Notes: generated by a model not told the origin, from the sequence alone. 64,000 bases of DNA from Candidatus Poribacteria bacterium (GCA_022820835.1 JAJEET010000123.1:3608-67607), one strand, 5' to 3'. Positions 3,588-60,777 are shown, numbered from the stretch's first letter. Made by a program: numbers and translations.

Positions 3588-4355
3588 CTACTGTTTCAGC
3601 CCTCCCCAAACAACTGCAAGTTTACCCGAAGGTTCAACGGCTAATATCTCGTCGTCAAAAGTGAGGTCCCCATAAGAGAGACCATCCCATGCACCGCCAG
3701 GTGTCCACCCGATCTGATGTTCGCGAGTGCCATTCTCACAATCGTTCATGTGGAAACTGAGTCCGATTGTCAACCCATGTTTCGCTCTGAATTTATCGCC
3801 GACACCCGGATTCGCGAACTGCGGGTTACCGCGCGGTTTCGTCGGGTCAATAGCGACCTCGTAGATGTAATCGTTCCCATTCTTGACGAGCACCCATTCG
3901 GTGTTTTGTTTTGATGCCGCAGCGGATAGGTCCTCACCGTTGGCACCGAGCGTCCATTGAACGAGACTGTCTCGGACCATGCCGTTATCGAAATCAAACA
4001 TAAACTCGACGCTATCATCCTCCCACCATTTGTTATCAGGCGGATGGATGTCTTGGAGTTCGTCGTCGGTGATTTGGACAGCGAAATAGATGCGGGTCGG
4101 ATCCTGTGAATTCCATGCGACCCTACCTTGACCGGTAAAATCACTCGCTTTCGGGATACCACCCCCGACATCCTTCAATTCATCGAAAGCAACGATTTCG
4201 GCGCGTTCCCATTCGTCAAGATTTCCGTCTATTTTGAGGTTCCTCAACTGTTTTGCCACATATTCCTTATCGCGTTTGGCTTCAACAGGTAGGCTCATTG
4301 TATAGAACAACAGCGCAGCTGCTGTTAGAATCGCTATAGCAAATTTAAACTTCAT
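3588..4355 (-). CDS. Secreted carbohydrate-binding (CBM9/DOMON-like) protein with C-terminal KLAVVWGGLK tail
   Basis: I chose the start at Met32 of the track ORF (ATG 4355..4353), which gives the signal peptide MKFKFAIAILTAAALLFYTMSLPVEA. The motif LKIDGNLDEWERAEIVAF is typical of CBM9-like domains. The upstream part of the track ORF overlaps the methyltransferase gene. Confidence 0.6.
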   Translation of the reverse strand: MKFKFAIAILTAAALLFYTMSLPVEAKRDKEYVAKQLRNLKIDGNLDEWERAEIVAFDELKDVGGGIPKASDFTGQGRVAWNSQDPTRIYFAVQITDDELQDIHPPDNKWWEDDSVEFMFDFDNGMVRDSLVQWTLGANGEDLSAAASKQNTEWVLVKNGNDYIYEVAIDPTKPRGNPQFANPGVGDKFRAKHGLTIGLSFHMNDCENGTREHQIGWTPGGAWDGLSYGDLTFDDEILAVEPSGKLAVVWGGLKQ

Positions 4356-5755
4356 ACACTTTCGCATTTGCGTATTCCTTTGTTTTTTAACTTTTGAATC
4401 AGTTGTTCCTGCGTCCGATTTCTTTTTTTTGAACTGCACGCACTGCATAACAACTGAAGGTTATCAGCGGCATCAGTGCCGCCTTTCAGTTTTGCCACAA
4501 TGTAATCGGGGGTCATACTATGAAACGGAAATGACGTTTGACAACCGTTGCATTTGCCGTCCTGAATTCCGAATAGTATGTGTTTATAGGTTTGGTGCTG
4601 TTTGTAAAACTTAGGCGTGTCCTTCCGGTGAATGACCGGCTCATTAATACCGCTCTGTTCGAGACGGGACTGCGCTAATTCATAACATTTCGGACTTAAA
4701 TCTATACCTATCCATCGGCGTTGTAACCGCTCCGCAGCCACACACGTCGTCGCGCACCCACAGAAGGGGTCAAGGACCCTATCGCCGAGGTTGCTGCTCG
4801 CTGCAATGATGCGTTCTAACAGGGCAATCGGTTTCTGCGTAGGGTATCCGATCCGTTCTTTGCTTCTTGCAGTCAAATTTGGGATATCCACCCAGATATT
4901 GTTCAACCGTTTGCCCCTTTGTTCATCAAGATACCGTTTATAGCGCGGCACATTTCCGGGTCGCGTCTGAACGATACGTCCCGCCGCTATTTCTTTACGC
5001 ATACGCGCTTGCGCCCACCGCCACGTTCTGACAACTCCCATCACGTCATAAGTCAGATGAGATTCGGGGTCGTGCGTCTGCGCGGTTACGGAAGTCAGCG
5101 AAAAACGGCGACCGGTTTCCGGCTCAACACAATAATACTGACGTTTCGTTTTCTCGTCCAAATTCGCCATATCGTATGGTATCGTGACCGCATCAAGGTT
5201 CCAGGTGTATGTATCACTTTTCGAGTAGCGGAAGATACTATCGGAGTCCCGGGCTAACCTTTTTTTGAGGTTACCCTTGGTGGTTACCGCCCGTTGCCAG
5301 ATAATCTCGTTTCTGAAGTTATCTTTCCCGAAGACGGTATCCATCACCGTTTTCAGGTAGTGACTCGCGTTATCATCACAATGAAGGTAAAGCGTCCCCG
5401 TCGGTTTGAGGATTCGGAACATCTCCAACATCCGAATGCCCATCATGATAAGATAGGCTTTCATGGACTTGCCATGACTAAACTCAGCGGCACTGATGAC
5501 ACGGTAGAGTTCCGGCTCCCTGTCTGCAAGTTCACCGTGAGTCGCGTCGTCGAGGTCCTCCAGTGTCCAAAAATCTTTGAACCTTGCCCCTGCGGCTTCA
5601 CTGCCTATGGATGCCTCAAACGTCCGATTGGAATTGAAAGGCGGATCAAGATAAATCAGATCGATAGAATTCGTGTCAAGTCCGCGAAGCACATGAAGGT
5701 TATCGTTTTCAAAGATGGTTCGGTTCTCGACCTTCATTCTATCTCCCGTAGTCAA
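4352..5755 (-). CDS. Beta-class N6-adenine/N4-cytosine DNA methyltransferase fused to a C-terminal HNH-like Cys4 finger
   Basis: Motif IV DPPF (res 37-40) precedes PTQKP and motif I VLDPFCGCATT, the N6_N4_Mtase order. The C-terminus reads CNGC..DYIVAKLKGG..NLQLLCSACSSKK, which is HNH-like. Confidence 0.8.
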   Translation of the reverse strand: MTTGDRMKVENRTIFENDNLHVLRGLDTNSIDLIYLDPPFNSNRTFEASIGSEAAGARFKDFWTLEDLDDATHGELADREPELYRVISAAEFSHGKSMKAYLIMMGIRMLEMFRILKPTGTLYLHCDDNASHYLKTVMDTVFGKDNFRNEIIWQRAVTTKGNLKKRLARDSDSIFRYSKSDTYTWNLDAVTIPYDMANLDEKTKRQYYCVEPETGRRFSLTSVTAQTHDPESHLTYDVMGVVRTWRWAQARMRKEIAAGRIVQTRPGNVPRYKRYLDEQRGKRLNNIWVDIPNLTARSKERIGYPTQKPIALLERIIAASSNLGDRVLDPFCGCATTCVAAERLQRRWIGIDLSPKCYELAQSRLEQSGINEPVIHRKDTPKFYKQHQTYKHILFGIQDGKCNGCQTSFPFHSMTPDYIVAKLKGGTDAADNLQLLCSACSSKKRNRTQEQLIQKLKNKGIRKCESV

Positions 5756-5806: not shown

Positions 5807-6595
5807 TTACGGTGTCGAACGGCGTTTGCCGCCATCCATATAAAGTGCGGTGCCAAACATATAGGAGCAGGCTTCAGAGGCTAAGAATGTCACGACATTC
5901 GCAACCTCTTCAGGTTCCGCGATACGACCCGCAGGAAGTTCTTGTCCAAGTGCCTGCAACAATTCCTCAACATCGCAGCCCTCGCGCTCGGCTCTCGCAC
6001 GCTGTTGGGTACGAGCACGGCCAGTATTGGTTAATCCGGGACAAACCGCATTTACCAAGATCCCATCTCCCGAAACAGCATCGGACAGGGCGCGCGTTAT
6101 ATTCAGGATCGTAATATTGGCTGCTCCGGTGGGTACGTTCGCACGGGTAGGACTTGTACCCGCCGAACCTGCGATATTGATGATGCGTCCCCACCGATTT
6201 TCTTTCATGAACGGAATAACCAATTGGGACATTCGTAGACAACTGTACGTTTTCAATCCAAGCGCGTCATCAATCAATTCTGGTGACAGTTCCAGAATGT
6301 CAGTATTCCGAGCGGCACCGACATTATTAACGAGAATATCAACACCACCAAAGCGTGCGACCATTGCCTGCACGACCTTCTCACAATTCGCTTGTAGGGT
6401 TAGATCACCAACAACAGCGTGCCCTTTATGCCCAGTCTGATTAATCTCCGTGAGTGCTTGATTTAGCGTGTCCTGTGTGCGGGCAGCGATACAAACGTGG
6501 ACACCCTCTCGTGCAAGCGCAAGCGCGCACTGCTTACCAATACCTCGACTGCCTCCGGTGACAATCGCTCGTTTTCCGTTGAGTCCTAAATCCAT
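5807..6595 (-). CDS. Short-chain dehydrogenase/reductase family protein (atypical active site)
   Basis: SDR-family motifs are present: TGGSRGIG cofactor motif, NNVGA, and ..VNAVCPG. The position of the canonical YxxxK reads TGAAN in a by-eye alignment to FabG. Confidence 0.85.
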   Translation of the reverse strand: MDLGLNGKRAIVTGGSRGIGKQCALALAREGVHVCIAARTQDTLNQALTEINQTGHKGHAVVGDLTLQANCEKVVQAMVARFGGVDILVNNVGAARNTDILELSPELIDDALGLKTYSCLRMSQLVIPFMKENRWGRIINIAGSAGTSPTRANVPTGAANITILNITRALSDAVSGDGILVNAVCPGLTNTGRARTQQRARAEREGCDVEELLQALGQELPAGRIAEPEEVANVVTFLASEACSYMFGTALYMDGGKRRSTP

Positions 6596-6632
6596 CTGTT
6601 GCCTGTCCTACGCTATATCCAGTTTTTAAAGT

Positions 6633-6842
6633 CTATTGACCTGATTTTAACAGTCCCCATGTAACAGCGAGTTTGTCCCGCGGTGCGACGGCAAGGCTTG
6701 AGCCCCCTGTATCAAAGACTTCCACATCGTCAATGAGCGTTTTCGACTGCCACTCTCGGATACCGAATCCACCTTCAGGGTAGGCGACTTTAGTGTACAC
6801 AGTGATATGTTTCCCATCAAGTGAGACTCCTTGCTTATTTTT
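6633..6842 (-). pseudogene. Start-less C-terminal remnant of a secreted lectin-like paralog
   Basis: The minus-strand frame is open between stops at 6843..6845 and 6633..6635. It reads ..GVSLDGKHITVYTKVAYPEGGFGIREWQSKTLIDDVEVFDTGGSSLAVAPRDKLAVTWGLLKSGQ* and has no ATG. It carries the same terminal motif as the two neighbouring secreted proteins. Confidence 0.4.
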
Positions 6843-7590
6843 TCAAACTTCCCCACGTGACAGCCAATTTCGCTTTGGCATCTACAGCGAGAGCTGTCTC
6901 AAGGCCGTCATTCATAACGGATTGGATGTCGTCTTCGCTGAGAACAGTGTTGAAGATAATGAATTCGTCAATCAATCCTTCCCACTGTCTCTGTTGATTC
7001 CAGTCACCAATCCGGGCAGGATCGAGAATACCAGGATTTCCGCCCCAGTCATGTTCGACATCAAGTTCGCCGTTAGCATAAAAACGGATTTTCTTCTCCT
7101 TCGCACTGTATGCAGTTGCGATGTGGACCCACTTATCCATTTCATCACCTGCTACCATATAGTTCGCGAAGGAGTCGTTGCCACCTGGGTTACCGTTAAT
7201 AGAAAATTCGACTTTATTGTTCGGGTGCATCTGGTAGTGAATGTCGCCTGCTTTCCAACCGTTGACGTTGAAGAAAACACGCCACTGCGATTCTCGGCCA
7301 GTGGATTTGACCCAATGGGTAAAGGTAATTTCTTCAAATTCGCCGATCCGTTTCGGGATTTCGACCCATTCGGTTGTCCCGTTGAGTTCAAGTGCCTCCC
7401 CAATTTGACCAGCAACGAATTTACCACCTTCTAATTCGCCATCAAACCCGTTGCCAGAAACGTCTTCGGCATTCCCATCAAACAGCCATGCCGCTGCAAC
7501 CATATCTTCGGTAATCTCAGCGGAGCCAGTTAGGCTGATACCCAAGGTAAACATCACGCCGAGCGTAATCGTAACGATCCGTATTAACAT
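6835..7590 (-). CDS. Secreted LamG (concanavalin A-like lectin) domain protein with KLAVTWGSLKK tail
   Basis: The signal peptide is MLIRIVTITLGVMFTLGISLTGSAE. The stretch LFDGNAEDVSGNGFDGELEGGKFVAGQIGEALELNG..IDEFIIFNTVLSEDDI is typical of Laminin_G_3. Confidence 0.8.
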   Translation of the reverse strand: MLIRIVTITLGVMFTLGISLTGSAEITEDMVAAAWLFDGNAEDVSGNGFDGELEGGKFVAGQIGEALELNGTTEWVEIPKRIGEFEEITFTHWVKSTGRESQWRVFFNVNGWKAGDIHYQMHPNNKVEFSINGNPGGNDSFANYMVAGDEMDKWVHIATAYSAKEKKIRFYANGELDVEHDWGGNPGILDPARIGDWNQQRQWEGLIDEFIIFNTVLSEDDIQSVMNDGLETALAVDAKAKLAVTWGSLKK

Positions 7591-7756: not shown

Positions 7757-7785
7757 GTATGGTGAGGCGTGAGGCCTCACCATAC
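7757..7785. other. Perfect 12-bp stem / 5-nt loop hairpin downstream of the paralog array
   Basis: gtatggtgaggc (7757..7768) pairs perfectly with gcctcaccatac (7774..7785), with loop gtgag. No U-tract on either strand, so it is not a canonical intrinsic terminator. Confidence 0.5.
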
Positions 7786-7828: not shown

Positions 7829-8866
7829 TTACAGCTTGGATCTCAATTGATCCATCAACCCATCAGGCGGCTCAAATGGTAGGTCAATAATCTCGTTCGT
7901 TATGCCACTGTAATATAACCCTAACAGTAGGTTAAACTCGGCGAGCGACTGCTTGAGATGTGTCGGATGCACGTTATTCTCATCATCCAGCCAATCAAAG
8001 ACCGCCTCTGTAAGGTTACCTTGCGCAACAACATCTTGCTCACCGTAGTTCAGTGGACCGCCTTCATAGCCACCTTCTGGCGTTGCACGCTCCCAACTGC
8101 TGAAACGCCAATGCACGAAACCTTTTGTACCCACAACAAAGACACGTTTGTGGCTGTACACACCTTGGTTATCGGATGCCATCGTCCCCATAACCGTACC
8201 AAATGCAAGGGAAACATGCAGCCCGTTTTCATATATAACTTGTCCAGCAGCATGCATCGGAGACGGCTGGGCTGAATCCAAGTGTTCCCGTCCAGCGATT
8301 TGTCCGAGCACACGAACCGGACGTGAGTTGTCAATATAAGAAGATACCAACTGCAACACATGTGGACCTTGGTCAACGGGTGTACTACGCGCACTGGCAT
8401 CAATGAACTTAATTTCACCAATCCTATCAGCTGCGACATCCCGTTTCAATTCCAAGTTTTTGGGATGGAAGTTGAGTTGCGTGTTAACAACGAACTTGGT
8501 CTGTGTCTCTTCGGCTAATCCTGCCAACTGCTTCCAGTCCTCACTCTCAACGGCAATCGGTTTTTCGACAATCGCCGCTGGCACACCCGCATCGGACGCC
8601 TGTTTCATCAACGGGTAACGGATACGCTCGTTGCTACCCCGCAGCACGGGGGCGGTAACAATATGCAGGACATCGGGTTTCTCTTTTTCGAGCATCTCGT
8701 CTAAATCAGTGTATCGTGAAGAGATGCCGAAGTCGTCTCCGAATTTGTTGAGTAATTCTTCGTTCATATCACAGACTGCAGCGAGTTGACCACCTTTGAC
8801 GAAGCGGTAAGCATCTGCATGCGCACGGGCGCGCCCACCACACCCTAACATTGCGGTTTTATACAC
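7829..8866 (-). CDS. Gfo/Idh/MocA family oxidoreductase, tandem paralog 1
   Basis: 345 aa with a GTG start preceded by GGAGA. It has the Rossmann motif LGCGGRARAH and the family EKP motif (AAIVEKPIA). Confidence 0.9.
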   Translation of the reverse strand: MYKTAMLGCGGRARAHADAYRFVKGGQLAAVCDMNEELLNKFGDDFGISSRYTDLDEMLEKEKPDVLHIVTAPVLRGSNERIRYPLMKQASDAGVPAAIVEKPIAVESEDWKQLAGLAEETQTKFVVNTQLNFHPKNLELKRDVAADRIGEIKFIDASARSTPVDQGPHVLQLVSSYIDNSRPVRVLGQIAGREHLDSAQPSPMHAAGQVIYENGLHVSLAFGTVMGTMASDNQGVYSHKRVFVVGTKGFVHWRFSSWERATPEGGYEGGPLNYGEQDVVAQGNLTEAVFDWLDDENNVHPTHLKQSLAEFNLLLGLYYSGITNEIIDLPFEPPDGLMDQLRSKL

Positions 8867-8902
8867 AGAAATGTCTCCTTTAATATTTTACGATTTATCG
8901 GT

Positions 8903-9940
8903 TTACAATTTTTCTCGAAGTGAATCCATCAACCCATCAGGCGGCTCAAATGGCAGATCAATGATTTGGTTCGTTATCCCGCTGTAGTAAAGACCTAACA
9001 GCAGGTTGAACTCCGCAAGCGATTGCTTGAGATGCGTCGGATGCACGTTGTTCTCATCATCCAGCCAATCAAAGACCGCCTCAGTGAGATTGCCTTGTGC
9101 AGCAATATCTTGTTCGCCATAGTTCAGCGGTCCGCCTTCGTAGCCGCCTTCTGGTGTTGCACGTTCCCAACTGCTGAAACGCCAGTGGACGAAACCTTTC
9201 GTACCTACAACAAAGACACGTTTATGTGCAACAGTACTCCCACTGTCAGACGCTAAAGTCCCCATGCCAGTGCCAAAAGCCAGAGAGACATGTAGACCGT
9301 TCTCATATATAGCTTGTCCAGCGGCATGCATCGGAGATGGCTGCGCAGAGTCTAACTGCTCCCGCCCAGCGATTTGACCTAACACGCGTACCGGACGCGA
9401 GTTGTCAATATAGGAGGATACCAACTGCAGCACATGTGGTGCCTGATCGACCGGTGTGCTGCGCGCACTTGCATCAATGAACTTAATCTCACCGATTCTG
9501 CCTTCTGCAACATCCCGTTTCAATTCCAGATTTTGGGGATGGAAGTTAAGTTGTGTATTAACAACGAACTTCGTTTTTGTCTCTTCCGCTAACTCGGCAA
9601 TTTGTTTCCAATCTTCGCTTTCAACGGCAATCGGTTTTTCGACAATCGCCGCTGGCACACCCGCATCGGAGGCCTGCTTCATCAGTGGATAACGGATGCG
9701 TTCACTTGTCCCACGCAGCACAGGTGCTGTGACGATGTGAAGGACATCCGGCTTCTCTTTCTCAAGCATCTCATCCAGGTCGGTGTAACGTGAGGAAACG
9801 TCGAAGTCGTCTCCAAATTTGTTGAGTAATTCTTCGTTCATATCACAAATTGCACCGATTTTGCCGCGTTTGACGAAACGGTAGGCACTTGCATGGGCGC
9901 GAGCACGACCGCCACACCCTAAAAACGCAGTTTTATACAT
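8903..9940 (-). CDS. Gfo/Idh/MocA family oxidoreductase, tandem paralog 2
   Basis: 345 aa with an ATG start preceded by AAGGAGA. It is near-identical to paralog 1 except for a short loop near residues 224-239. Confidence 0.9.
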   Translation of the reverse strand: MYKTAFLGCGGRARAHASAYRFVKRGKIGAICDMNEELLNKFGDDFDVSSRYTDLDEMLEKEKPDVLHIVTAPVLRGTSERIRYPLMKQASDAGVPAAIVEKPIAVESEDWKQIAELAEETKTKFVVNTQLNFHPQNLELKRDVAEGRIGEIKFIDASARSTPVDQAPHVLQLVSSYIDNSRPVRVLGQIAGREQLDSAQPSPMHAAGQAIYENGLHVSLAFGTGMGTLASDSGSTVAHKRVFVVGTKGFVHWRFSSWERATPEGGYEGGPLNYGEQDIAAQGNLTEAVFDWLDDENNVHPTHLKQSLAEFNLLLGLYYSGITNQIIDLPFEPPDGLMDSLREKL

Positions 9941-9963
9941 AAAAATATCTCCTTACAATATTA

Positions 9964-10058
9964 TTAGGATTTACGCGTTGTTTTATCAAATCTCACGTAA
10001 AACGCACCGCGTGCGGGGTTTGAAACTCCGCACGCAACGAGGACTGCGTAAGCCCTGA
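9964..10058. repeat. MITE-like element with GGAYTTACGC terminal inverted repeats and a GC-rich hairpin (copy A)
   Basis: The TIRs are aggatttacgcg (9966..9977) and gcgtaagccct (10046..10056). The core hairpin is gcgtgcgggg-tttgaaa-ctccgcacgc (10009..10035). It sits between paralog 3 stop and paralog 2 start. Confidence 0.7.
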
Positions 10059-10118
10059 CTATTTCCAATATCAAGCCGAAATGGATTAGATACTAAGAAA
10101 AAAATACAAGTCAACTTT

Positions 10119-11162
10119 TTACAGATTCTCTCGGAGTAAATCGATCAAGCCATCAGGCGGTTCAAACGGGAGATCTATCATCTCATTTGTTACACCGCTG
10201 TAATAAATTCCTAAAAGTAGGTTGAACTCTGCAAGGGACTGCTTGAGATGTGTCGGATGCTGCTTGCTCTCATCATCGAGCCAGTCGAAAACAGCTTCGG
10301 TGAGGTTGCCCTGTGCAATGACATCCTGCTCACCGTAGTCAAGCGGACCGCTTTCGTAGCCACCCTCTGGCGTTGCGCGTTCCCAACTGCTAAACCGCCA
10401 GTGCACAAACCCTTTCGTGCCAACAACAAAAACACGTTTATGTGTATGATTGCCGGCATCCGGTTCTTTAGGCACTTTCTGCCCTAAGCCCGTCCCGAAG
10501 GCGAGAGAGACGTGAAGACCGTTGGCATATAAAGCTTGAGCGGCAGCATGCATAGGGGAAGGCTGAGTGGAATCCAGATCCTGACCCCCAGAAACCTGTC
10601 CGAGCACCCGCACCGGACGCGAGTTGTCAATGTAGGAAGAGACGAGTTGCAACACGTGGGGCGCCTGGTCTACAGGCGTACTCCGCGCACTCGCATCGAT
10701 AAATTTGATCTCACCGATTCTGCCCTCTGCGACATCTCGTTTCAGTTCCAAGTTTTTTGGGTGGAAATTGAGTTGTGTGTTAACAACAAACTTCGTTTTC
10801 GTCTCTTCTGCTAATCCGGCAAGCTGCTTCCAGTCTTCGCTTTCAACGGCAATCGGTTTTTCGACAATCGCCGCCGGCACACCGGCATCGGATGCCTGTT
10901 TCATCAATGGATAGCGAATCCGTTGGCTGGTCCCGCGTAGAACTGGGGCAGTAACAATATGAAGAACATCCGGTTTCTCTTTTTCAAGCATCTCATCAAG
11001 ATCGGTATAGCGTGAGGAAACCCCAAAGTCGTCTCCGAAACTGTTGAGTAGTTCTTCGTTCATATCGCAGATCGCACCGATCTTGCCGCGTTTAACGAAA
11101 CGGTAAGCATCTGCATGCGCACGGGCGCGTCCACCGCACCCTAAAAATGCAGTTTTGTACAC
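10119..11162 (-). CDS. Gfo/Idh/MocA family oxidoreductase, tandem paralog 3
   Basis: I moved the start to the GTG at 11162. The context ggagacatttctGTG is identical to that of paralog 1, and the longer track ORF is upstream read-through. This copy has a 3-aa longer variable loop (GLGQKVPKEPDAGNHTH). Confidence 0.85.
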   Translation of the reverse strand: MYKTAFLGCGGRARAHADAYRFVKRGKIGAICDMNEELLNSFGDDFGVSSRYTDLDEMLEKEKPDVLHIVTAPVLRGTSQRIRYPLMKQASDAGVPAAIVEKPIAVESEDWKQLAGLAEETKTKFVVNTQLNFHPKNLELKRDVAEGRIGEIKFIDASARSTPVDQAPHVLQLVSSYIDNSRPVRVLGQVSGGQDLDSTQPSPMHAAAQALYANGLHVSLAFGTGLGQKVPKEPDAGNHTHKRVFVVGTKGFVHWRFSSWERATPEGGYESGPLDYGEQDVIAQGNLTEAVFDWLDDESKQHPTHLKQSLAEFNLLLGIYYSGVTNEMIDLPFEPPDGLIDLLRENL

Positions 11163-11355
11163 AGAAATGTCTCCTTTAATACTTTGATTATATTGACATA
11201 CTCCCACAACTAAAGCAGTGGGATTCTCTAAGAATCCGTTGCTTTTCTGTGTAGATCGTGGGTTTCCGACCTCGGTTGAAGTCTACGAAGGTCGCTTGCG
11301 ATAGCAAGTCTAACACCCTCTAATCCAAAGGTTGATGTCCCAACCTTTAAACGGT

Positions 11356-11793
11356 TCACTCACCATTTTCTTTTAATGCCTGTGTGAAATCATCTGCTGT
11401 TTCCACCCGCATCGCAGTGCGAAAGAGCTGCTTAAGACGCTGCAAATCATTAATCGTCTCCAAATCGGATTTAAAAGTTTCAGCGATTTCAGGCTGTAAT
11501 TGAAAGGCGAGTGCCTCAAGGATATTCTCACGAATAGTTTTTTGAGCCCCTTGTTGGATTCCTTGTTGGATTCCTTGTTCATGTGCTTCTGGTGCTAAGT
11601 ATTCAGCGATGGAAGATTGTTGCATGGTTTCCTCCGAAATGATCTCTAAAATCGTTTGTGCGTCATAAACTAAGTTTCCCAAAACTACAAGACTCCCAAG
11701 ATATTCCGGCTTGTTCGGAACGTCAATACTGTCCGCAGTTTGGACACAACGGCGAAGCCACTGTTTCGCGTTAGACGAGAATTTCGCCTGCCG
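11356..11793 (-). pseudogene. C-terminal remnant of an Rpn/DUF4351-type (PD-(D/E)XK nuclease family transposase-like) gene
   Basis: The frame is open from the stop at 11794..11796. It reads ..AKQWLRRCVQ..LVVLGNLVYDAQTILEIISEETMQQSSIAEYL..HEQGIQQGIQQGAQKTIRENILEAL..LQRLKQLF, the QQG-repeat plus helical tail typical of DUF4351 ends. The N-terminal nuclease part is absent. Confidence 0.5.
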
Positions 11794-11807
11794 CTATGCC
11801 TATAAGT

Positions 11808-12845
11808 TTACAACTTCTCCCGGAGCAAGTCCATTAATCCATCAGGCGGTTCAAACGGGAGGTCAATAATCTGGTTCGTTATCCCACTATAATAAAGCCC
11901 TAAGAGAAGATTAAACTCCGCGAGCGACTGCTTGAGATGTGTCGGATGCACGTTGTTCTCATCATCTAACCAATCAAAAACGGCTTCGGTGAGGTTCACC
12001 TGCGCAACGCTATTTTGCTCGCCGTAGTTCAGTGGGCCGCCCTCGTAGCCACCTTCTGGCGTTGCGCGCTCCCAACTGCTAAACCGCCAATGCACGAAAC
12101 CTTCCGTACCAACGACAAAGACACGTTTGTGACCGTAGATACCCGGGTTATCGGAGGCAGTTGTCCCCATACCTGTCCCGAACGCGACAGAGACGTGGAG
12201 ACCATTCTCATACAAAATTTGTCCAGCGGCATGCATCGGAGACGGCTGATCTGAATCTAAATGATCTCTTCCAGCGATTTGTCCAAGCACTCGCACTGGA
12301 CGCGCGTTGTCAATGTATGAAGACACTAATTGGAGCACATGCGGACCCTGGTCGACTGGCGTGCTACGCGCACTCGCATCAATGAATTTAATCTCGCCAA
12401 TCCGTCCTTCGGCGACATCTTTCTTTAACTCCAGATTTTTCGGGTGAAAGTTGAGTTGTGTATTAATGGCGAACTTCGTTTTCGTCTCTTCTGCTAACCC
12501 TGCAATCTGCTTCCAATCTTCACTTTCCACAGCAATCGGTTTCTCAATAATCACAGCGGGCACACCCGCGTCAGATGCCTGTTTCATCAGTGGATAGCGG
12601 ATGCGTTCACTTGTCCCGCGCAACACGGGTGCTGTGACGATATGTAGGACATCCGGTTTCTCCTTCTCAAGCATCGCGTCTAAATCGGTGTAGCGTGAAG
12701 ATATATCGAATTCGTCCCCGAATTCGCTGAGCCGTTCCTCGTTCATATCGCAGATAGCGGCGAGTTTACCGCCTTTGGTGGACTGGTAAGCATTTGCGTG
12801 TGCACGGGCGCGCCCCCTGCACCCTAATATCGCGGTTTTATACAT
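11808..12845 (-). CDS. Gfo/Idh/MocA family oxidoreductase, tandem paralog 4
   Basis: The start is at Met45 of the track ORF (ATG 12845, RBS GAAGGAGAAA). The upstream 44 codons of the track ORF run through the TIR element. 345 aa. Confidence 0.9.
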   Translation of the reverse strand: MYKTAILGCRGRARAHANAYQSTKGGKLAAICDMNEERLSEFGDEFDISSRYTDLDAMLEKEKPDVLHIVTAPVLRGTSERIRYPLMKQASDAGVPAVIIEKPIAVESEDWKQIAGLAEETKTKFAINTQLNFHPKNLELKKDVAEGRIGEIKFIDASARSTPVDQGPHVLQLVSSYIDNARPVRVLGQIAGRDHLDSDQPSPMHAAGQILYENGLHVSVAFGTGMGTTASDNPGIYGHKRVFVVGTEGFVHWRFSSWERATPEGGYEGGPLNYGEQNSVAQVNLTEAVFDWLDDENNVHPTHLKQSLAEFNLLLGLYYSGITNQIIDLPFEPPDGLMDLLREKL

Positions 12846-12867
12846 AAAGATTTCTCCTTCAATACTA

Positions 12868-12961
12868 TTAGGACTTACGCGTCTTTTATCAAATCCCACA
12901 TAAAACGCACCGCAGGCGGGGTTTGAAACCCCGCCTGCAACGGGGACTGCGTAAGTCCTAA
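12868..12961. repeat. MITE-like element with GGACTTACGC terminal inverted repeats and a GC-rich hairpin (copy B)
   Basis: The TIRs are ttaggacttacgcg (12868..12881) and gcgtaagtccta (12949..12960). The hairpin is a perfect 10-bp stem, gcaggcgggg-tttgaaa-ccccgcctgc (12912..12938). Its position is the same as copy A, between paralog 5 stop and paralog 4 start. Confidence 0.75.
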
Positions 12962-13021
12962 CTATTTCCAATATCAAGCCAAATGGTTAGATGTCCACAA
13001 AAGAAAATACAAGTTAACTTT

Positions 13022-14065
13022 TTATAATTTTTCTCGGAGTAAACCCATCAACCCATCCGGCGGTTCAAATGGAAGATCAACAATCTCGTTTGTGAGCCCA
13101 CTATAGTACATCCCAAGAATAATGTTAAATTCTATAAGCGATTGCTTGAGATGCGTCGGATGCACAGTACTCTCATCGTCTAACCAATCAAAAATGGCTT
13201 CGGTGAAGTTTGCCTGCGCGACAACATCCTGCTCGCCATAATTGAGTGGACCGCTCTCATAGCCACCGTCCAATGTTGAACGTTCCCAACTGCTGAAACG
13301 CCAATGTACGAAGCCTTTCGTCCCAGCAACAAAGACCCGTTTATGATCGTAGACACCTTGGGTATCGGATGCCTTTTGTGCCATCTCTGTTCCGAAAGCA
13401 AGAGAAACGTGGACACCGTTCTCATGCAGAACATGCCCGACTGCATGCGGTGGACCGGGGTGTCCAGGGGCAGACTTTAAATTCTGCCTTCCAGAGATTT
13501 GCCCAAGAACCCGTACCGGAGGTGAGTTGTCAATGTAAGACGACACCAGTTGTAGCACATGTCCGCCTTGTTCGACGGGTCTACTACGCGCACTCGCATC
13601 AATAAACCGAATCTCGCCGATGCGTCCTTCGGCGACATCTTTTTTTAGTTCCAAATTCTTCGGATGGAAATCGAGCTGTGTATTGACGACAAATTTTGTT
13701 TTCGTCTCTGCTGCTAACTCCGCAATCTGTTTCCAATCTTCACCTTCAACAGCGACTGGTTTTTCAATAATCGCCGCTGGAACACCGTGGTCGGATGCCT
13801 GTTTCATCAACGGATAACGGAGACGTTCCTCGCTACTCGGCACCACAGGTGTTGTGACGATGTGAAGCACATCCGGTCTCTCTTTCTCGAGCATCTCATC
13901 CAAGTCGGTGTAGCGTGATGAGATACCGAAATCATCCCCGAAGTTATTGAGGCGTTCTTCGTTCATATCGCAGATTGCGGCGAGTGTCCCGCGTTTAACG
14001 AAGCGATACGCATCTGCATGCCCACGGGCGCGCCCACCGCATCCCAACATCGCAGTTTTATACAT
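13022..14065 (-). CDS. Gfo/Idh/MocA family oxidoreductase, tandem paralog 5 (most divergent of the five)
   Basis: The start is at Met7 of the track ORF (ATG 14065, RBS GAGGAGA). It has the same GCGGRARGH and EKP motifs. 347 aa. Confidence 0.9.
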   Translation of the reverse strand: MYKTAMLGCGGRARGHADAYRFVKRGTLAAICDMNEERLNNFGDDFGISSRYTDLDEMLEKERPDVLHIVTTPVVPSSEERLRYPLMKQASDHGVPAAIIEKPVAVEGEDWKQIAELAAETKTKFVVNTQLDFHPKNLELKKDVAEGRIGEIRFIDASARSRPVEQGGHVLQLVSSYIDNSPPVRVLGQISGRQNLKSAPGHPGPPHAVGHVLHENGVHVSLAFGTEMAQKASDTQGVYDHKRVFVAGTKGFVHWRFSSWERSTLDGGYESGPLNYGEQDVVAQANFTEAIFDWLDDESTVHPTHLKQSLIEFNIILGMYYSGLTNEIVDLPFEPPDGLMGLLREKL

Positions 14066-14182
14066 AAACTGTCTCCTCGACATCCTTGATGTGAAAAATC
14101 AAAACCACATTAATAAAAAATGACAGATTGTATAGGTTAACAGCGGAAACTGATTTTGTCAAGCATTACTTCGGGATCGCTC

Positions 14183-15223
14183 CTACGAAGAGATGTCGAC
14201 TTTCTCGCCGCTCTTCGCGCTGTCGTAAAGCGCATCCAAAATCTGCATGAAAACATAAGCATCTGGAGCAGAGACATCCGGTGCCACTTCGCCTGCTATC
14301 GCCATGCCGAAATGATTCAGTTCATAGTAGAAAACAGGCACTTCTGCAGGGAGTTCACCGTGGTCAATCTCCGTCGGTTCATCAATCGCTTCTCGGATAA
14401 ATTCGCCATCTTTAAATCGCGCAATACCACCGTTTGTGATTGAACCGGTTGTCCCGTACAGTTCTACGACGCTCGCGGAATCCGAATGACTCATCCGAGA
14501 GCAGTCAATCTGAATCGTTTTCCCGCCTTCGCACCCGAGGAGACCGGTGAAGTAGTCCTCCGCTGCGCCTTCGGGTCCGTCATATTGCGGATACAGCACA
14601 TGCTTCGCAGCAAATGCCCACTCCGGCTTCGGAGACCCCATCCACCACCACATAAGGTTGAGCTCGTGCGAGTAGTGTTGCCCTAACGAACCGCCTTTTT
14701 GCCCGTAGACATGCAACCAACGACTGTTCTCATCAAAGTCTGGGATAAAGTTGTATTTTCCGAAAGCGCGAGCGTGATATAGGTCACCGATTGCACCGTT
14801 CAGAACAGCGCGCCGAATCTTTCGATTGTTCGGGAAATGACGCATAAAATAGCAAAATTGAAGGGTCTTGCCAGATTGTTGTGCCGCTGCCTCCATTTCT
14901 AAAATTTCAGGCGCGCGGATGGCGTGCGGTTTTTGTACCAAGACATGCTTATTAGCACTGAGCGCGTCCAAGACTTGCTGCAATCTACCATCGGGAGAAG
15001 TCGCGAGGTAAACGGCTTCAACAGCAGGATTGTCCAGGAGCTCGTGATAGTCGGCGTATCGGTGTGGCACAGCATTGTCATCTCCCGCTTGTTCACGACG
15101 GGTTGCGTCACGCTCTGCAATCGCGATAACGTTGAGTCGCGAGGTCGCATTCGCAGCTTCGATGGCACGGCAGCCTGCCCATCCACACCCAACGACTCCG
15201 AGTCGAATGATTTGATTCGTCAT
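14183..15223 (-). CDS. Gfo/Idh/MocA family oxidoreductase (distinct subfamily)
   Basis: The start is at Met7 (ATG 15223), with GGAGG 8 nt upstream. It has IRLGVVGCGWAG and a variant LVQKPHA at the position of the family EKP motif. Confidence 0.85.
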   Translation of the reverse strand: MTNQIIRLGVVGCGWAGCRAIEAANATSRLNVIAIAERDATRREQAGDDNAVPHRYADYHELLDNPAVEAVYLATSPDGRLQQVLDALSANKHVLVQKPHAIRAPEILEMEAAAQQSGKTLQFCYFMRHFPNNRKIRRAVLNGAIGDLYHARAFGKYNFIPDFDENSRWLHVYGQKGGSLGQHYSHELNLMWWWMGSPKPEWAFAAKHVLYPQYDGPEGAAEDYFTGLLGCEGGKTIQIDCSRMSHSDSASVVELYGTTGSITNGGIARFKDGEFIREAIDEPTEIDHGELPAEVPVFYYELNHFGMAIAGEVAPDVSAPDAYVFMQILDALYDSAKSGEKVDISS

Positions 15224-15270
15224 AAGTGTTGCCTCCGGCACTCCTATAGAAAAGTGTAAAGAAATGTTAT

Positions 15271-16041
15271 TTAAAACATATTCGGTAATTCTGCAACGCT
15301 ATTGATCACCCATGTCGGCTTCGCGACAGGGTTTTCCAACTGATTGGGTTTAAACTTTCCAGTCTTAACCAAGATACTCCGCATTCCCGTTCCCTGCGCC
15401 CCAACGATGTCGGAAGTGATGTCGTCTCCTATCACAACAGCTTCACTTGGAGAGCATTGAAGACTTTCAAGCGCGATTTTGAACAACGTCTCACTCGGTT
15501 TGCCCATGACTTTAGCGGTTTTACCTGTAGCTGCCTCTAATAGTGTCACGAACGCGCCACAATCCAAGAACATGCCTTTTGAAGAGAACCAATAGAGGTT
15601 TTTCTGCAAGGCTATCAGTTCAGCACCATTCATCAACAGGCGAAAGGCGTGATTTAAAGCGTGAAAATCAAACCCCTCGCCGTAGTCTCCGACGACGACA
15701 AAATCAGGAGCCTCGTCATCTACCGGTATCTCCTTGAAGAACGCTTTGACAGCATCATCAACCATGAAGTGGCAACGGTTCTTCGGTTGCGAACGTAGGT
15801 ATTGGAGGCAGGCGTAAGTTGCGTTGAAAATTTCGTCCTCGTAGATATCAAAACCGAGTGTCTGCATCTGCGCGTGAAGCATCTTTGGTGTTTTGGCAGT
15901 CGTGTTTGTCAAAAACCGGAGTTGATACTTTTTTTGCCGTAGATAGTTGACGGTCTCAATTGCGCCGGGATAAGGTTCACCTTTAAAGTAGAGCGTCCCA
16001 TCCAAGTCGATTAAGAAAGCCTTAGGCGATGTTGGTGCCAT
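15271..16041 (-). CDS. HAD-IIA family hydrolase (NagD/LHPP-like phosphatase)
   Basis: It has the FLIDLDGTLY nucleophile motif, LTNTT, and a GDD..SDI motif. Confidence 0.8.
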   Translation of the reverse strand: MAPTSPKAFLIDLDGTLYFKGEPYPGAIETVNYLRQKKYQLRFLTNTTAKTPKMLHAQMQTLGFDIYEDEIFNATYACLQYLRSQPKNRCHFMVDDAVKAFFKEIPVDDEAPDFVVVGDYGEGFDFHALNHAFRLLMNGAELIALQKNLYWFSSKGMFLDCGAFVTLLEAATGKTAKVMGKPSETLFKIALESLQCSPSEAVVIGDDITSDIVGAQGTGMRSILVKTGKFKPNQLENPVAKPTWVINSVAELPNMF

Positions 16042-16064
16042 CTTTTGCTATTTTCCTCAGTGCC

Positions 16065-17243
16065 CTACGGTTCCACAACTTTATAGTGTTCAACCTGCCC
16101 GTTTTGGATCACTTGAATTGCGAGGCTTTTGACAGGATGTCGATTTTCATCGTAATGTGAAATGGTTGTCGCGCCTTTATAATCACTAACTGCAGCGAAG
16201 GCATCGCGAACTGCAACGCTGTCAAGCGAACCTGCTGTCTCTATTGCGCGTGCCAAGAGTCGCATCGCATCGTAGCCCGAAGCGGCGATTCCATCTGGCG
16301 GACTTCCGAAGAGCGCGGTGTAACCGCTCACGAATTCCTGCACATCCGCATCCTGTGTCGCAACCGAGAAATTGGTTGGATAGTAGCTGCCATCTAACAC
16401 ACTGTTATCGTCTAAGATGCTGAGAAATCGTTCTCTGTCATCCCACGCACTCCCCCCGAGAAAAGGCACTGTGATGCCGACTTGACGGGCTGCGTTAATG
16501 AAGCGTGGGACCTCTGGCTGATGACCGGGACAGAAGATAACATCAGGCATTGCCTCATGAATTTCTGTGAGCTGTGCAGTAAAAGTAGTATCACCAGCAG
16601 AATAGGCACCGCTGTGAACGATTTGACCACCGATTTCCTGAAAAGCTGCTTCAAAGGCCTGTACGAGATCAATGGAGTAGTCGTCGCCTTCCTCATAAAT
16701 TGTCGCAGCCGTTGTGGCACCAAGTTCGTCAGGGCTCATAGCGAAACTTGCCATCACTTTCGCTTGAAACGGGTTGGGGACCGTGATGAGAAAAATATAA
16801 TCTCCGGCTTCAGGGACGGTTGAACCACTGGCACCGGGAAGCATGAGTCGTTGTGCTTGCTGCGCAATCGGACCGACCGCAATGGCCATGGATGAACGAA
16901 CGGGACCCAAGAGTGCAAAGACGTTTTCCATCTCGATGAGGTCTTTTGCGGCACTAATGCTTGCTTCTGGTGTTGGGAGTTCACCCATCACAGGTTCGTT
17001 ATTTCGGGTAATAAACTCGACCTGCATACCGAGCACGCCTCCATTATCATTAATTTGGGCACGCGCCGTTTCGGCACCTTGACTAAAAGTCGTATAACTG
17101 TGAGACGGCTGAATCACACCAATTTTTAATGTTGTTTCTGTCGGCGGAGTCGTGTCTGTTTGGATCAACTGACCTGCTCGTTCGCATCCTGTTAGTATGG
17201 TAAGTAGAACAATTGAAATTAAAGCACATATCTTCACATTCAT
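16065..17243 (-). CDS. ABC transporter substrate-binding lipoprotein, type-1 PBP (Leu/Ile/Val-binding-like)
   Basis: The start is at Met32 of the track ORF (ATG 17243, RBS AAGGAGAA), giving the lipoprotein signal MNVKICALISIVLLTILTGC. The stretch KIGVIQP..GAETARAQINDNGGVLG is typical of Peripla_BP_6. Confidence 0.8.
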   Translation of the reverse strand: MNVKICALISIVLLTILTGCERAGQLIQTDTTPPTETTLKIGVIQPSHSYTTFSQGAETARAQINDNGGVLGMQVEFITRNNEPVMGELPTPEASISAAKDLIEMENVFALLGPVRSSMAIAVGPIAQQAQRLMLPGASGSTVPEAGDYIFLITVPNPFQAKVMASFAMSPDELGATTAATIYEEGDDYSIDLVQAFEAAFQEIGGQIVHSGAYSAGDTTFTAQLTEIHEAMPDVIFCPGHQPEVPRFINAARQVGITVPFLGGSAWDDRERFLSILDDNSVLDGSYYPTNFSVATQDADVQEFVSGYTALFGSPPDGIAASGYDAMRLLARAIETAGSLDSVAVRDAFAAVSDYKGATTISHYDENRHPVKSLAIQVIQNGQVEHYKVVEP

Positions 17244-17492
17244 AATGCAGATTTTCTCCTTTAAAAATGCTTGAAAAATATTTGGGTTTATGGTAACTTT
17301 TATCCAATACCCAAAGCTTCGTAGAAACAGTAACACATCCGACCGATTTTGTCAAGTTTCTAAAATACACCGTTAATTTACCGATTCCCCAACAACATAT
17401 CGTGCGCAACGGACTTAAATCATACCATAGATGGTAAAATACGGAGCACATCCAATAGCCTAAAAATTCGGAATCCACAAAGGAGCTTGCTT

Positions 17493-42141: not shown

Positions 42142-42180
42142 GCAGGCGAGGTTTCAAACCCCGCAAAATAATAGGATTTA
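42142..42180. repeat. Decayed partial copy of the GC-hairpin MITE-like element immediately upstream of dxs
   Basis: gcaggcgagg-tttcaaa-ccccgc followed by aataggattta. Its orientation relative to the downstream start codon is the same as copies A and B. Confidence 0.5.
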
Positions 42181-60683: not shown

Positions 60684-60777
60684 AGAGGACTTACGCAGCC
60701 CTCTTTGCAAGCGAGGTTTGAAACCCCGCCTGCAGGGTGTCGGATGTCCGTTATCATGGAAAAATACGTAAGTCTTG
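60684..60777. repeat. MITE-like element with GGACTTACGC TIRs and GC hairpin (copy C, partly decayed)
   Basis: It runs aggacttacgc (60686..60696), gcaagcgagg-tttgaaa-ccccgcctgc, then acgtaagtct (60766..60775). It lies upstream of the BMP-family SBP gene. Confidence 0.65.

Follow-up and report, generated by a model that had tools for sequence, protein, structure and literature searches.

A conserved tandem array of Gfo/Idh/MocA-type paralogs with lineage-specific loops in Candidatus Poribacteria

The 64,000-nucleotide stretch JAJEET010000123.1:3608-67607 of the Candidatus Poribacteria assembly GCA_022820835.1 (hereafter, the window) carries on its minus strand, at positions 7829-15241, six co-oriented genes: an array of five Gfo/Idh/MocA-type paralogs, G1 to G5, and a further member of the same superfamily, G6. 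The paralogs are old duplications, which occurred earlier than the divergence of the sampled Poribacteria species and have since been kept under strong purifying selection. Each paralog lineage has its own fixed loop of 16-18 residues, located between the strands at residues 217-222 and 240-246, and this loop is the main site where the lineages differ. The best explanation overall, to which we assign a probability of roughly 0.6, is an ancient, phylum-typical cluster of NAD-dependent dehydrogenases of differing specificity, with the loop at a putative substrate pocket. The six genes are:

7829-8866, minus strand: G1, paralog of 345 amino acids with a GTG start, final gene of the array
8903-9940, minus strand: G2, paralog of 345 amino acids
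10119-11162, minus strand: G3, paralog of 347 amino acids with a GTG start and a loop longer by two residues
11808-12845, minus strand: G4, paralog of 345 amino acids, with Arg for the second Gly of the GxGxxA motif
13022-14065, minus strand: G5, paralog of the basal lineage, 347 amino acids, with Glu replacing Asp165
14183-15241, minus strand: G6, canonical Gfo/Idh/MocA oxidoreductase of another subfamily, first gene of the conserved cluster

A first-pass annotation, made from the sequence by eye, had described five head-to-tail Gfo/Idh/MocA genes, and this arrangement was confirmed, with products of 345-347 amino acids all matched by PF01408 (E = 7.8e-17 for G1, 1.4e-15 for G3 and 3.8e-17 for G5, the three tested). 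The Pfam models of the C-terminal domain remain below threshold in the paralogs, PF22725 reaching 17 bits vs a cutoff of 27, and G6 passes the thresholds of PF01408, PF22725 and PF02894. Of the two motifs reported as shared, EKP is present in 5/5 paralogs, while GCGGRARAH is found with deviations in two of them (GCRGRARAH in G4 and GCGGRARGH in G5). The sixth gene had been taken for a divergent member of the same family; it is indeed a Gfo/Idh/MocA gene, but with only 19% identity to G1 over 190 amino acids (N-terminal domain) it represents another subfamily rather than a diverged copy. For G5, an identical protein is already on record (P0403).

The same annotation had called the copies near-identical and had attributed them to recent amplification, and it had suggested that they be aligned, that dN/dS be computed with a check for gene-conversion tracts, and that related genomes be compared. 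All of these analyses were carried out, and neither description withstood them. Pairwise identity among G1-G5 is 77-90% at the protein and 73-81% at the nucleotide level; the alignment contains two small indels, G2-G5 are 81-90% identical to G1, and 117 of 349 columns are variable. Synonymous divergence (dS), calculated for all ten pairs with the Nei-Gojobori method (NG86), is saturated at 1.27-4.29, with a ratio of nonsynonymous to synonymous divergence (dN/dS) of 0.033-0.106. Identity at third codon positions is 0.46-0.57, the proportion of synonymous differences (pS) in sliding windows never falls below 0.41, and the longest identical run between copies, around the EKP motif, measures 50 nt. 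No long gene-conversion tracts were found among G1-G5, either from sliding-window pS or from the lengths of identical runs. As a separate observation, the identical stretches that G1 shares with G2 (50 nt) and G2 with G3 (41 nt), at codon-alignment nt ~271-329 in the EKP region, exceed the codon-shuffled expectation (p = 0.003-0.005, uncorrected), and could represent a micro-conversion tract or a constraint at the nucleotide level.

Hundreds of relatives of the proteins carry the name Candidatus Poribacteria. A scan of the species-representative genomes of GTDB recovered 70 loci, all labelled as Poribacteria except for one 'uncultured bacterium', and many of them lie on closed chromosomes of 4-6.7 Mb. 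The order G6-G5-(G4)-G3-G2-last gene recurs in the 70 loci, within syntenic flanks that run Peripla_BP_6, HAD, G6, array, (PhyH), Laminin_G_3 and SDR; loci of at least 20 kb hold from 1 to 6 family genes, most often 4. The array of most genomes ends in a gene of a type, here named 'c13', which is not present in the window, where G1 takes its slot. The best orthologs are 99% identical for G2 (in locus L003), 97% for G3, 96% for G4, 92% for G5 and 94% for G1, and those of G6 are 71-95% identical (mostly 80-95%) and stand at the head or upstream of the array in most related loci.

In a neighbour-joining (NJ) tree with bootstrap, rooted on relatives outside the family and built without the closest G1 relatives (93-94%), the window copies join the orthologs of other genomes at bootstrap values of 84 (G2), 100 (G3) and 95 (G4). 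The G5-type sequences are basal, with the G5 of the window placed within their clade at 66, and G1, G2 and G4 form, together with a further type, c17, a clade with 100% support. G3 is not the sister of G5, and the pairing of G4 with G2 is weak (bootstrap 36). Outside the phylum, a search of 1.84 billion cluster representatives yielded full-length relatives of at most 44% identity, some of which carry Armatimonadota names; the one non-phylum relative with a readable context is a single-copy gene beside a TetR regulator and an ABC transporter.

These data bear directly on the scenario of a recent tandem amplification in which a two-gene module was duplicated too and the loop then came under rapid diversifying selection. 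The tandem, co-oriented arrangement of the genes and their similarity agree with that scenario, but the saturated dS, the orthologs found in the same order in other species (G2-G4 at 95-99%, G5 and G1 at 92-94%), the separate orthogroups of the tree (bootstrap 84-100 for G2-G4) and the lack of long conversion tracts rule it out for the genes. In addition, the related genomes do not belong to the same strain, since pS within groups is 0.25-0.70, and G5 and G3 are not paired in the tree, with G4 and G2 paired only at 36. Overall, we regard recent amplification as very improbable. A collapsed, expanded or chimeric repeat has an even smaller probability, close to negligible: the window derives from an 82.8-kb metagenome scaffold, whose gene calls are the same and where such an artefact might be suspected, but the array is also found in ~70 independent assemblies, many of them closed chromosomes, and the copies differ at 19-27% of nucleotides, so that an assembler would not confuse them. 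The conserved order in ~70 loci thus excludes both a recent origin and an assembly artefact.

The loop sequences reported by the first-pass annotation were correct to within 3 nt, and are located as follows:

8147-8200, minus strand: loop of G1, GTVMGTMASDNQGVYSHK, residues 223-240
9221-9274, minus strand: loop of G2, GTGMGTLASDSGSTVAHK
10437-10496, minus strand: loop of G3, GTGLGQKVPKEPDAGNHTHK
12126-12179, minus strand: loop of G4, GTGMGTTASDNPGIYGHK
13340-13393, minus strand: loop of G5, GTEMAQKASDTQGVYDHK, alignment columns 225-243

The proposal that the differences among the copies are concentrated in this loop was supported in that the region is a significant hot spot, the most variable 18-column window starting at columns 225-227 with a score of 9.8 (shuffled alignments 5.87 +/- 0.57, with 0/20,000 reaching the observed value); it did not extend to the bulk of the variation, of which the loop window holds only ~17% of all pairwise differences among G1-G5. 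A second variable patch, also proposed, is real and covers residues 191-214.

The role of the loop in separating the lineages emerged on a broader scale from the 266 family genes extracted from the loci and sorted into orthogroups, with 244 sequences from 8 groups used for the loop statistics. Residues 224-241 make up 5% of the length and account for 21% of the mutual information that links group to residue, a value reached in 0/5,000 shuffles, and entropy within groups is not significantly raised in the loop across the same 244 sequences and 8 orthogroups. Of the ten most group-discriminating positions, the loop contributes seven (225-238) and the 193-199 patch the other three, and position 238, with 1.88 bits, is the most discriminating column of the family. 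For the loop, the ratio of nonsynonymous to synonymous differences per site (pN/pS) is 0.51 when groups are compared with one another and 0.04-0.27 inside them, compared with 0.12 and 0.06-0.15, respectively, in the rest of the gene. Each orthogroup conserves its loop over dozens of species, as in the case of G3 (GTGLGQKVPKEPDAGNHTHK), G2 (GTGMGTLASDSESTVAHK) and c13 (GTAIAPTASDDPVVFFHK); the loop of G3 is kept across its 50-member orthogroup, with the exception of one shorter-loop variant (5 sequences). This is the pattern of divergence after duplication, followed by long constraint. A loop pN/pS that is four times the value elsewhere in the gene could be counted in favour of recent amplification with diversifying selection, but the conservation of the loops within orthogroups speaks against it. 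A diversity-generating retroelement or another form of targeted hypervariation was also considered and rejected, as the loops are fixed within orthogroups and no additional copy of the loop region is present in the locus (no reverse-transcriptase scan was made of the rest of the window).

A structural model was used to place the loop in the fold. An initial model from a shallow alignment had a mean predicted local distance difference test (pLDDT) score of 73.6, with the loop below 50 and fold matches at a template modelling score (TM) of ~0.5, and was superseded by an AlphaFold2 (AF2) model from a deep alignment including distant relatives, with a pLDDT of 96.3 and a predicted TM score (pTM) of 0.93. 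Foldseek matched the deep model to Gfo/Idh/MocA structures with a probability of 1.00, a TM of 0.77-0.79 and 14-22% identity, among them 5UHW, oxidoreductive sulfoquinovosidases, scyllo-inositol dehydrogenase and DgpA; both the model and these matches display the C-terminal alpha/beta domain with a large open beta-sheet. For the loop of G1, between the strands at 217-222 and 240-246, mean pLDDT is 83 in the first and 81 in the second of the two 10-residue blocks that cover residues 221-240.

Within this fold the proteins display the GxGxxA motif of a Rossmann domain, Asp33 at the end of strand 2, the catalytic lysine K102 of EKP and His169 of the Asp-x-x-x-His motif, located on the first helix of the C-terminal domain. 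E101, K102, P103, H169 and K240 are invariant in 266/266 sequences and H239 is present in 262/266, with EKP also invariant in the 60-sequence deep alignment. In the nucleotide-binding motif G8 and A13 are invariant and G10 occurs in 251/266, the G4 group having Arg at position 10; position 165 is Asp in 208, Glu in 47 (the G5 lineages) and Asn in 11 of the 266. More distant members of the subfamily do not keep the Asp of Asp-x-x-x-His, and keep Q-G-x-H. From general knowledge of the fold, we take Asp33 to fit a preference for NAD; the paralogs begin directly at the first Rossmann strand, which suggests that they are cytoplasmic.

The position of the loop relative to the substrate was approached through the inositol dehydrogenases. 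An hhalign comparison with a shallow profile aligned only the N-terminal domain to IolG of B. subtilis, and the deep profile was needed for the remainder (probability 99%, E = 8e-18, 17% identity; IolG sequence verified against PDB 3MZ0). In this alignment IolG Y233, G234 and Y235 are placed on residues 236, 237 and 238 of the paralogs, with a register good to ~1-2 residues because the ungapped strand just downstream is aligned with high confidence. In inositol dehydrogenases these residues form motif V (Y233-G-Y235), located after the third strand of the C-terminal sheet; Tyr235 binds substrate, and the position separates specificity groups (PMC9603128). We thus infer that the C-terminal end of the loop sits at motif V, a substrate contact and specificity marker, and positions 236-238, which align to it, are the most paralog-specific ones. 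With its end at this position, the loop would help to form the substrate pocket or the pocket entrance.

The two groups of enzymes have the same fold, EKP lysine and Asp-x-x-x-His helix, and inositol dehydrogenases too occur as several paralogs per genome, some adjacent in one operon and differing in substrate range, as in C. glutamicum with its operon oxiC-cg3390-oxiD-oxiE, whose paralogous inositol dehydrogenases have differing specificities (PMC9603128). Such multi-paralog operons being documented, the array cannot be called unusual for the family, as had been claimed. Differences are nonetheless clear. Unlike IolG, the paralogs are without the YGY motif, the aligned residues being V/T/N/I, Y/F/V/H and S/A/T/G/F/C, and they carry an insertion of 12-14 residues ahead of the motif V position. 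Moreover, they form four to six strict-tandem copies conserved across the sampled Poribacteria genomes, and no iol catabolic genes lie near the array.

Behind the canonical gene G6 the cluster holds four to six paralogs, which belong to a separate subfamily without a characterised member. In the proposed mechanism, the array would supply NAD-dependent dehydrogenases that act on the secondary alcohols of sugars, cyclitols or glycosides, the substrates being related but not the same, and each paralog would add its own substrate or regio-specificity. Some distant relatives found elsewhere than in the window (P0135, P0140 and P0161, 765-788 amino acids) combine a class-III aminotransferase with a C-terminal domain of the paralog subfamily, at 31-38% identity. 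Such a fusion fits a keto-sugar or inosose product and gives a hint of an oxidation with a subsequent transamination.

Several points weigh against this explanation. As much as 79-83% of the divergence lies outside the loop, and positive selection on the loop is not demonstrable, since dS is saturated and the loop pN/pS is below 1. The placement of the loop at the pocket is derived from alignment: hhalign gives the Y235 column a low confidence (3 in a range of 0-9), the register may be shifted by 1-2 residues, IolG has no counterpart to the insertion that makes up most of the loop (224-235), and the nearest solved structures are only 14-22% identical. The GCRGRA variant, with Arg10 for the second Gly, is conserved in all G4-type orthologs, in which cofactor binding may be altered or absent, so that this type possibly does not bind its cofactor in the normal manner. 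Finally, no equivalog model fits (TIGR04380, the model for myo-inositol 2-dehydrogenase or IolG, reaches 49-50 bits vs a cutoff of 355, over residues 1-160 only), and the neighbouring genes form no recognisable pathway.

If the copies were redundant and kept for dosage, the loop differences could be the product of near-neutral drift, fixed early in a tolerant surface loop. Such an origin would agree with the loop having the lowest model confidence in the protein (pLDDT 81-83), with its being an insertion relative to IolG, with the somewhat weaker within-group constraint (pN/pS 0.04-0.27 in the loop vs 0.06-0.15 elsewhere) and with a copy number of 1 to 6 per locus. It is nevertheless distinctly improbable, because the loops are conserved across dozens of species with far-diverged synonymous sites (pS 0.25-0.70), distinct orthogroups are kept side by side in conserved order in most genomes, and the column that best separates the groups falls on an established specificity position.

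The best PDB profile matches of the paralogs are 5UHW, an Agrobacterium oxidoreductase, and DgpA1, a glycoside 3-dehydrogenase (E = 1e-40 and 1e-37), which are the best matches in fold too (TM 0.77 with a root-mean-square deviation of 3.7 Å for 5UHW, and TM 0.69 for DgpA1). They have in common with the paralogs the GCG-type N-terminal nucleotide-binding motif, but identity is 19-22% and the C-terminal domain aligns weakly by sequence. The cluster also differs from a DgpA-type system, which acts on C- and O-glycosides, in that its neighbours include neither a DgpB/DgpC-like partner (a C-C lyase resembling sugar-phosphate isomerases) nor a xylose-isomerase-like TIM barrel, and the auto-inhibitory loop of DgpA, at residues 308-316, is in another place than the paralog loop (PMC9939296).

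The loop was also considered as a quaternary-structure or gating element, which would direct subunit pairing in homo- or hetero-oligomers, or serve as a lid or auto-inhibitory loop over the pocket. The C-terminal sheet is the oligomer interface in the superfamily, the DgpA pocket is partly blocked by a loop of the neighbouring subunit (PMC9939296), a lineage-specific yet conserved loop would suit this role, and the atypical cofactor motif of G4 could fit a non-catalytic partner subunit. Conversely, the neighbour-subunit loops of the compared enzymes are at ~303-321 and 308-316 and not at motif V, and the aligned IolG position is a substrate contact within the same subunit. On balance, we consider such a function unlikely, and favour a loop at the substrate pocket of dehydrogenases of differing specificity.

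A relation with the "GH109" family was examined as well. GH109 enzymes, NAD-dependent alpha-N-acetylgalactosaminidases, have a Gfo/Idh/MocA-type Rossmann N-terminal domain, but only residues 4-157 of the paralogs match 6T2B (E = 2.4e-4), the paralogs measure ~345 amino acids vs ~440 for GH109, which is secreted, and the best 50 Foldseek matches include no GH109 structure. By sequence and predicted fold, the array paralogs are not GH109. In a sponge-microbiome study, "GH109" genes are described as abundant in poribacterial genomes, and "GH109" as exceeding every other CAZy family in abundance in an Aplysina aerophoba metaproteome, with a model match restricted to residues ~3-115 (PMC6081418), as it would be for the array proteins too. 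According to its text, 16 expressed "GH109" proteins have their best match in the Armatimonadetes hypothetical protein OIP04581.1, with 74-75% identity in the table rows examined (PMC6081418, Table S7). The metaproteome proteins may be members of the array paralog family; in cluster look-ups aimed at linking the OIP04581.1-type proteins to this family, no accession matched. In the literature searched, no paper joins Poribacteria with PF01408, COG0673 or Gfo/Idh/MocA arrays, or describes the array or the loop.

A bolder extension can be formulated, which we hold as tentative and rather doubtful. The long insertion at motif V would be an exchangeable specificity cassette, by which sponge-derived sugars, cyclitols or glycosides are divided among four to seven paralogs that the sampled Poribacteria conserve; the paralogs would correspond to the mis-annotated, expressed "GH109" class of sponge microbiomes and would really be oxidative enzymes at the entry of carbohydrate catabolism, and the G4 type might be a non-canonical or regulatory subunit.

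The spacers of the array have a history of their own. The terminal-inverted-repeat element of 95 bp noted by the first-pass annotation is present, with a length of ~97 nt, in two of them:

12868-12965, no strand assigned: palindromic element resembling miniature inverted-repeat transposable elements (MITE) or repetitive extragenic palindromes (REP), copy 1, in the G5>G4 spacer; resembles a terminator on the minus strand
9965-10062, no strand assigned: MITE/REP-like palindromic element, copy 2, in the G3>G2 spacer

The element is bounded by terminal inverted repeats of 11 nt (AGGACTTACGC ... GCGTAAGTCCT), which enclose a G+C-rich palindrome (GCGGGGTTTSAAACCCCGC). Its two spacer copies differ by compensatory stem changes, the predicted fold of one copy has an energy of -51.4 kcal/mol (z = -7.4), and a terminator-like site was called at 12942-12908 within the copy of the G5>G4 spacer. 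Four cores occur in the 64-kb window, all intergenic, vs 0 expected (9965-10062, 12868-12965, 42146-42164 and 60711-60729), and the element is found at other spacer positions in the loci L002, L005, L030, L035 and L048. It resembles REP/MITE-like repeats in being non-coding and ~97 nt long, in its terminal inverted repeats and inner G+C-rich hairpin, and in its several intergenic copies, whose insertion points vary by genome; it differs in that no transposase partner was identified and in being known here only from Poribacteria loci. Comparison of empty and filled sites (GGAAATAG^TATTGAAGGAG) revealed no clear target-site duplication, no transposase could be linked to the element, and no Rfam family matches the element or the spacers. 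It is a dispersed MITE/REP-like palindrome, apparently inserted later in two spacers, where the copies may act as terminators or insulators between genes.

The array had also been interpreted as containing a duplicated module of paralog, element and paralog. The G5>G4 spacer of the window (12846-13021) is 85% identical to its G3>G2 spacer (9941-10118), and these similar element-bearing spacers would favour a recent amplification; it is also 93% identical over 96 nt to the G3>G2-type spacer of L008. In most other genomes, however, the G3>G2 spacer measures ~80 nt and is without the element, and the G5>G4 spacers are unrelated in sequence to that of the window, which indicates that only the spacer was copied. 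With G5 basal and G3 not its sister in the NJ tree, the idea of a two-gene module duplication does not hold for the genes and survives solely for the spacer. The G5>G4 spacer was thus replaced by recombination, as a copy of a G3>G2-type spacer with its element, between flanking genes that are old.

A remnant open reading frame (ORF) lies in a further spacer:

11356-11682, minus strand: remnant ORF of 108 amino acids, between G4 and G3, C-terminal third of a 297-amino-acid Rpn-like protein

It is 70% identical to amino acids 194-297 of the protein encoded at L071:11163-12056. The full-length protein of 297 amino acids has a weak, sub-threshold match (E = 5.5e-5) to TIGR01784, the Rpn-family recombination-promoting nuclease/putative transposase. 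Rpn-like copies are found inside arrays in ~37/70 loci, sometimes in tandem, with four in L054, and the protein could be related to array rearrangements.

The conserved neighbours of the cluster are:

15271-17336, minus strand: upstream neighbours, HAD-IIA-type hydrolase (15271-16041) and Peripla_BP_6 solute-binding protein (16065-17336)
5807-7590, minus strand: downstream neighbours, Laminin_G_3 protein (6835-7590) and short-chain dehydrogenase SDR (5807-6595)

The upstream order is repeated in L071, L072 and L075, and the downstream one in L071-L073. Farther downstream, a single ORF of 467 amino acids on the minus strand (4352-5755) encodes an N6/N4 DNA methylase with an HNH endonuclease, and the equivalent region of the syntenic L071 is interrupted by the insertion of a DDE transposase. 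Scans for promoters and terminators gave counts not above shuffled controls (14 vs 9.6 +/- 2.6 and 12 vs 8.9 +/- 3.0, respectively). G1 and G3, both with a GTG start, are preceded by the same 19-nt leader TATTAAAGGAGACATTTCT (8867-8885 and 11163-11181), and G2 and G4 have in common another leader, of ATG type. At 7757-7785, 44 nt past the stop of G1, there is a perfect 12-bp stem with a 5-nt loop (GTATGGTGAGGC CTCAC GCCTCACCATAC), without a T run.

Poribacteria are uncultured, dominant symbionts of sponges, with a presumed role in the degradation of carbohydrates from the host and from seawater. As it stands, the array is a case of ordinary old duplication followed by subfunctionalisation within a well-known enzyme superfamily, and the functional idea on the loop, which rests on sequence and alignment, is plausible, if unproven. 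The cluster is conserved in ~70 loci and belongs to a subfamily without a characterised member, whose relatives outside the phylum are at most 44% identical. The array might also help to correct the "GH109 glycosidase" label of sponge-microbiome studies, and, if the paralogs differ in substrate range via the loop at motif V, it would offer a compact natural experiment in the encoding of specificity by Gfo/Idh/MocA enzymes.

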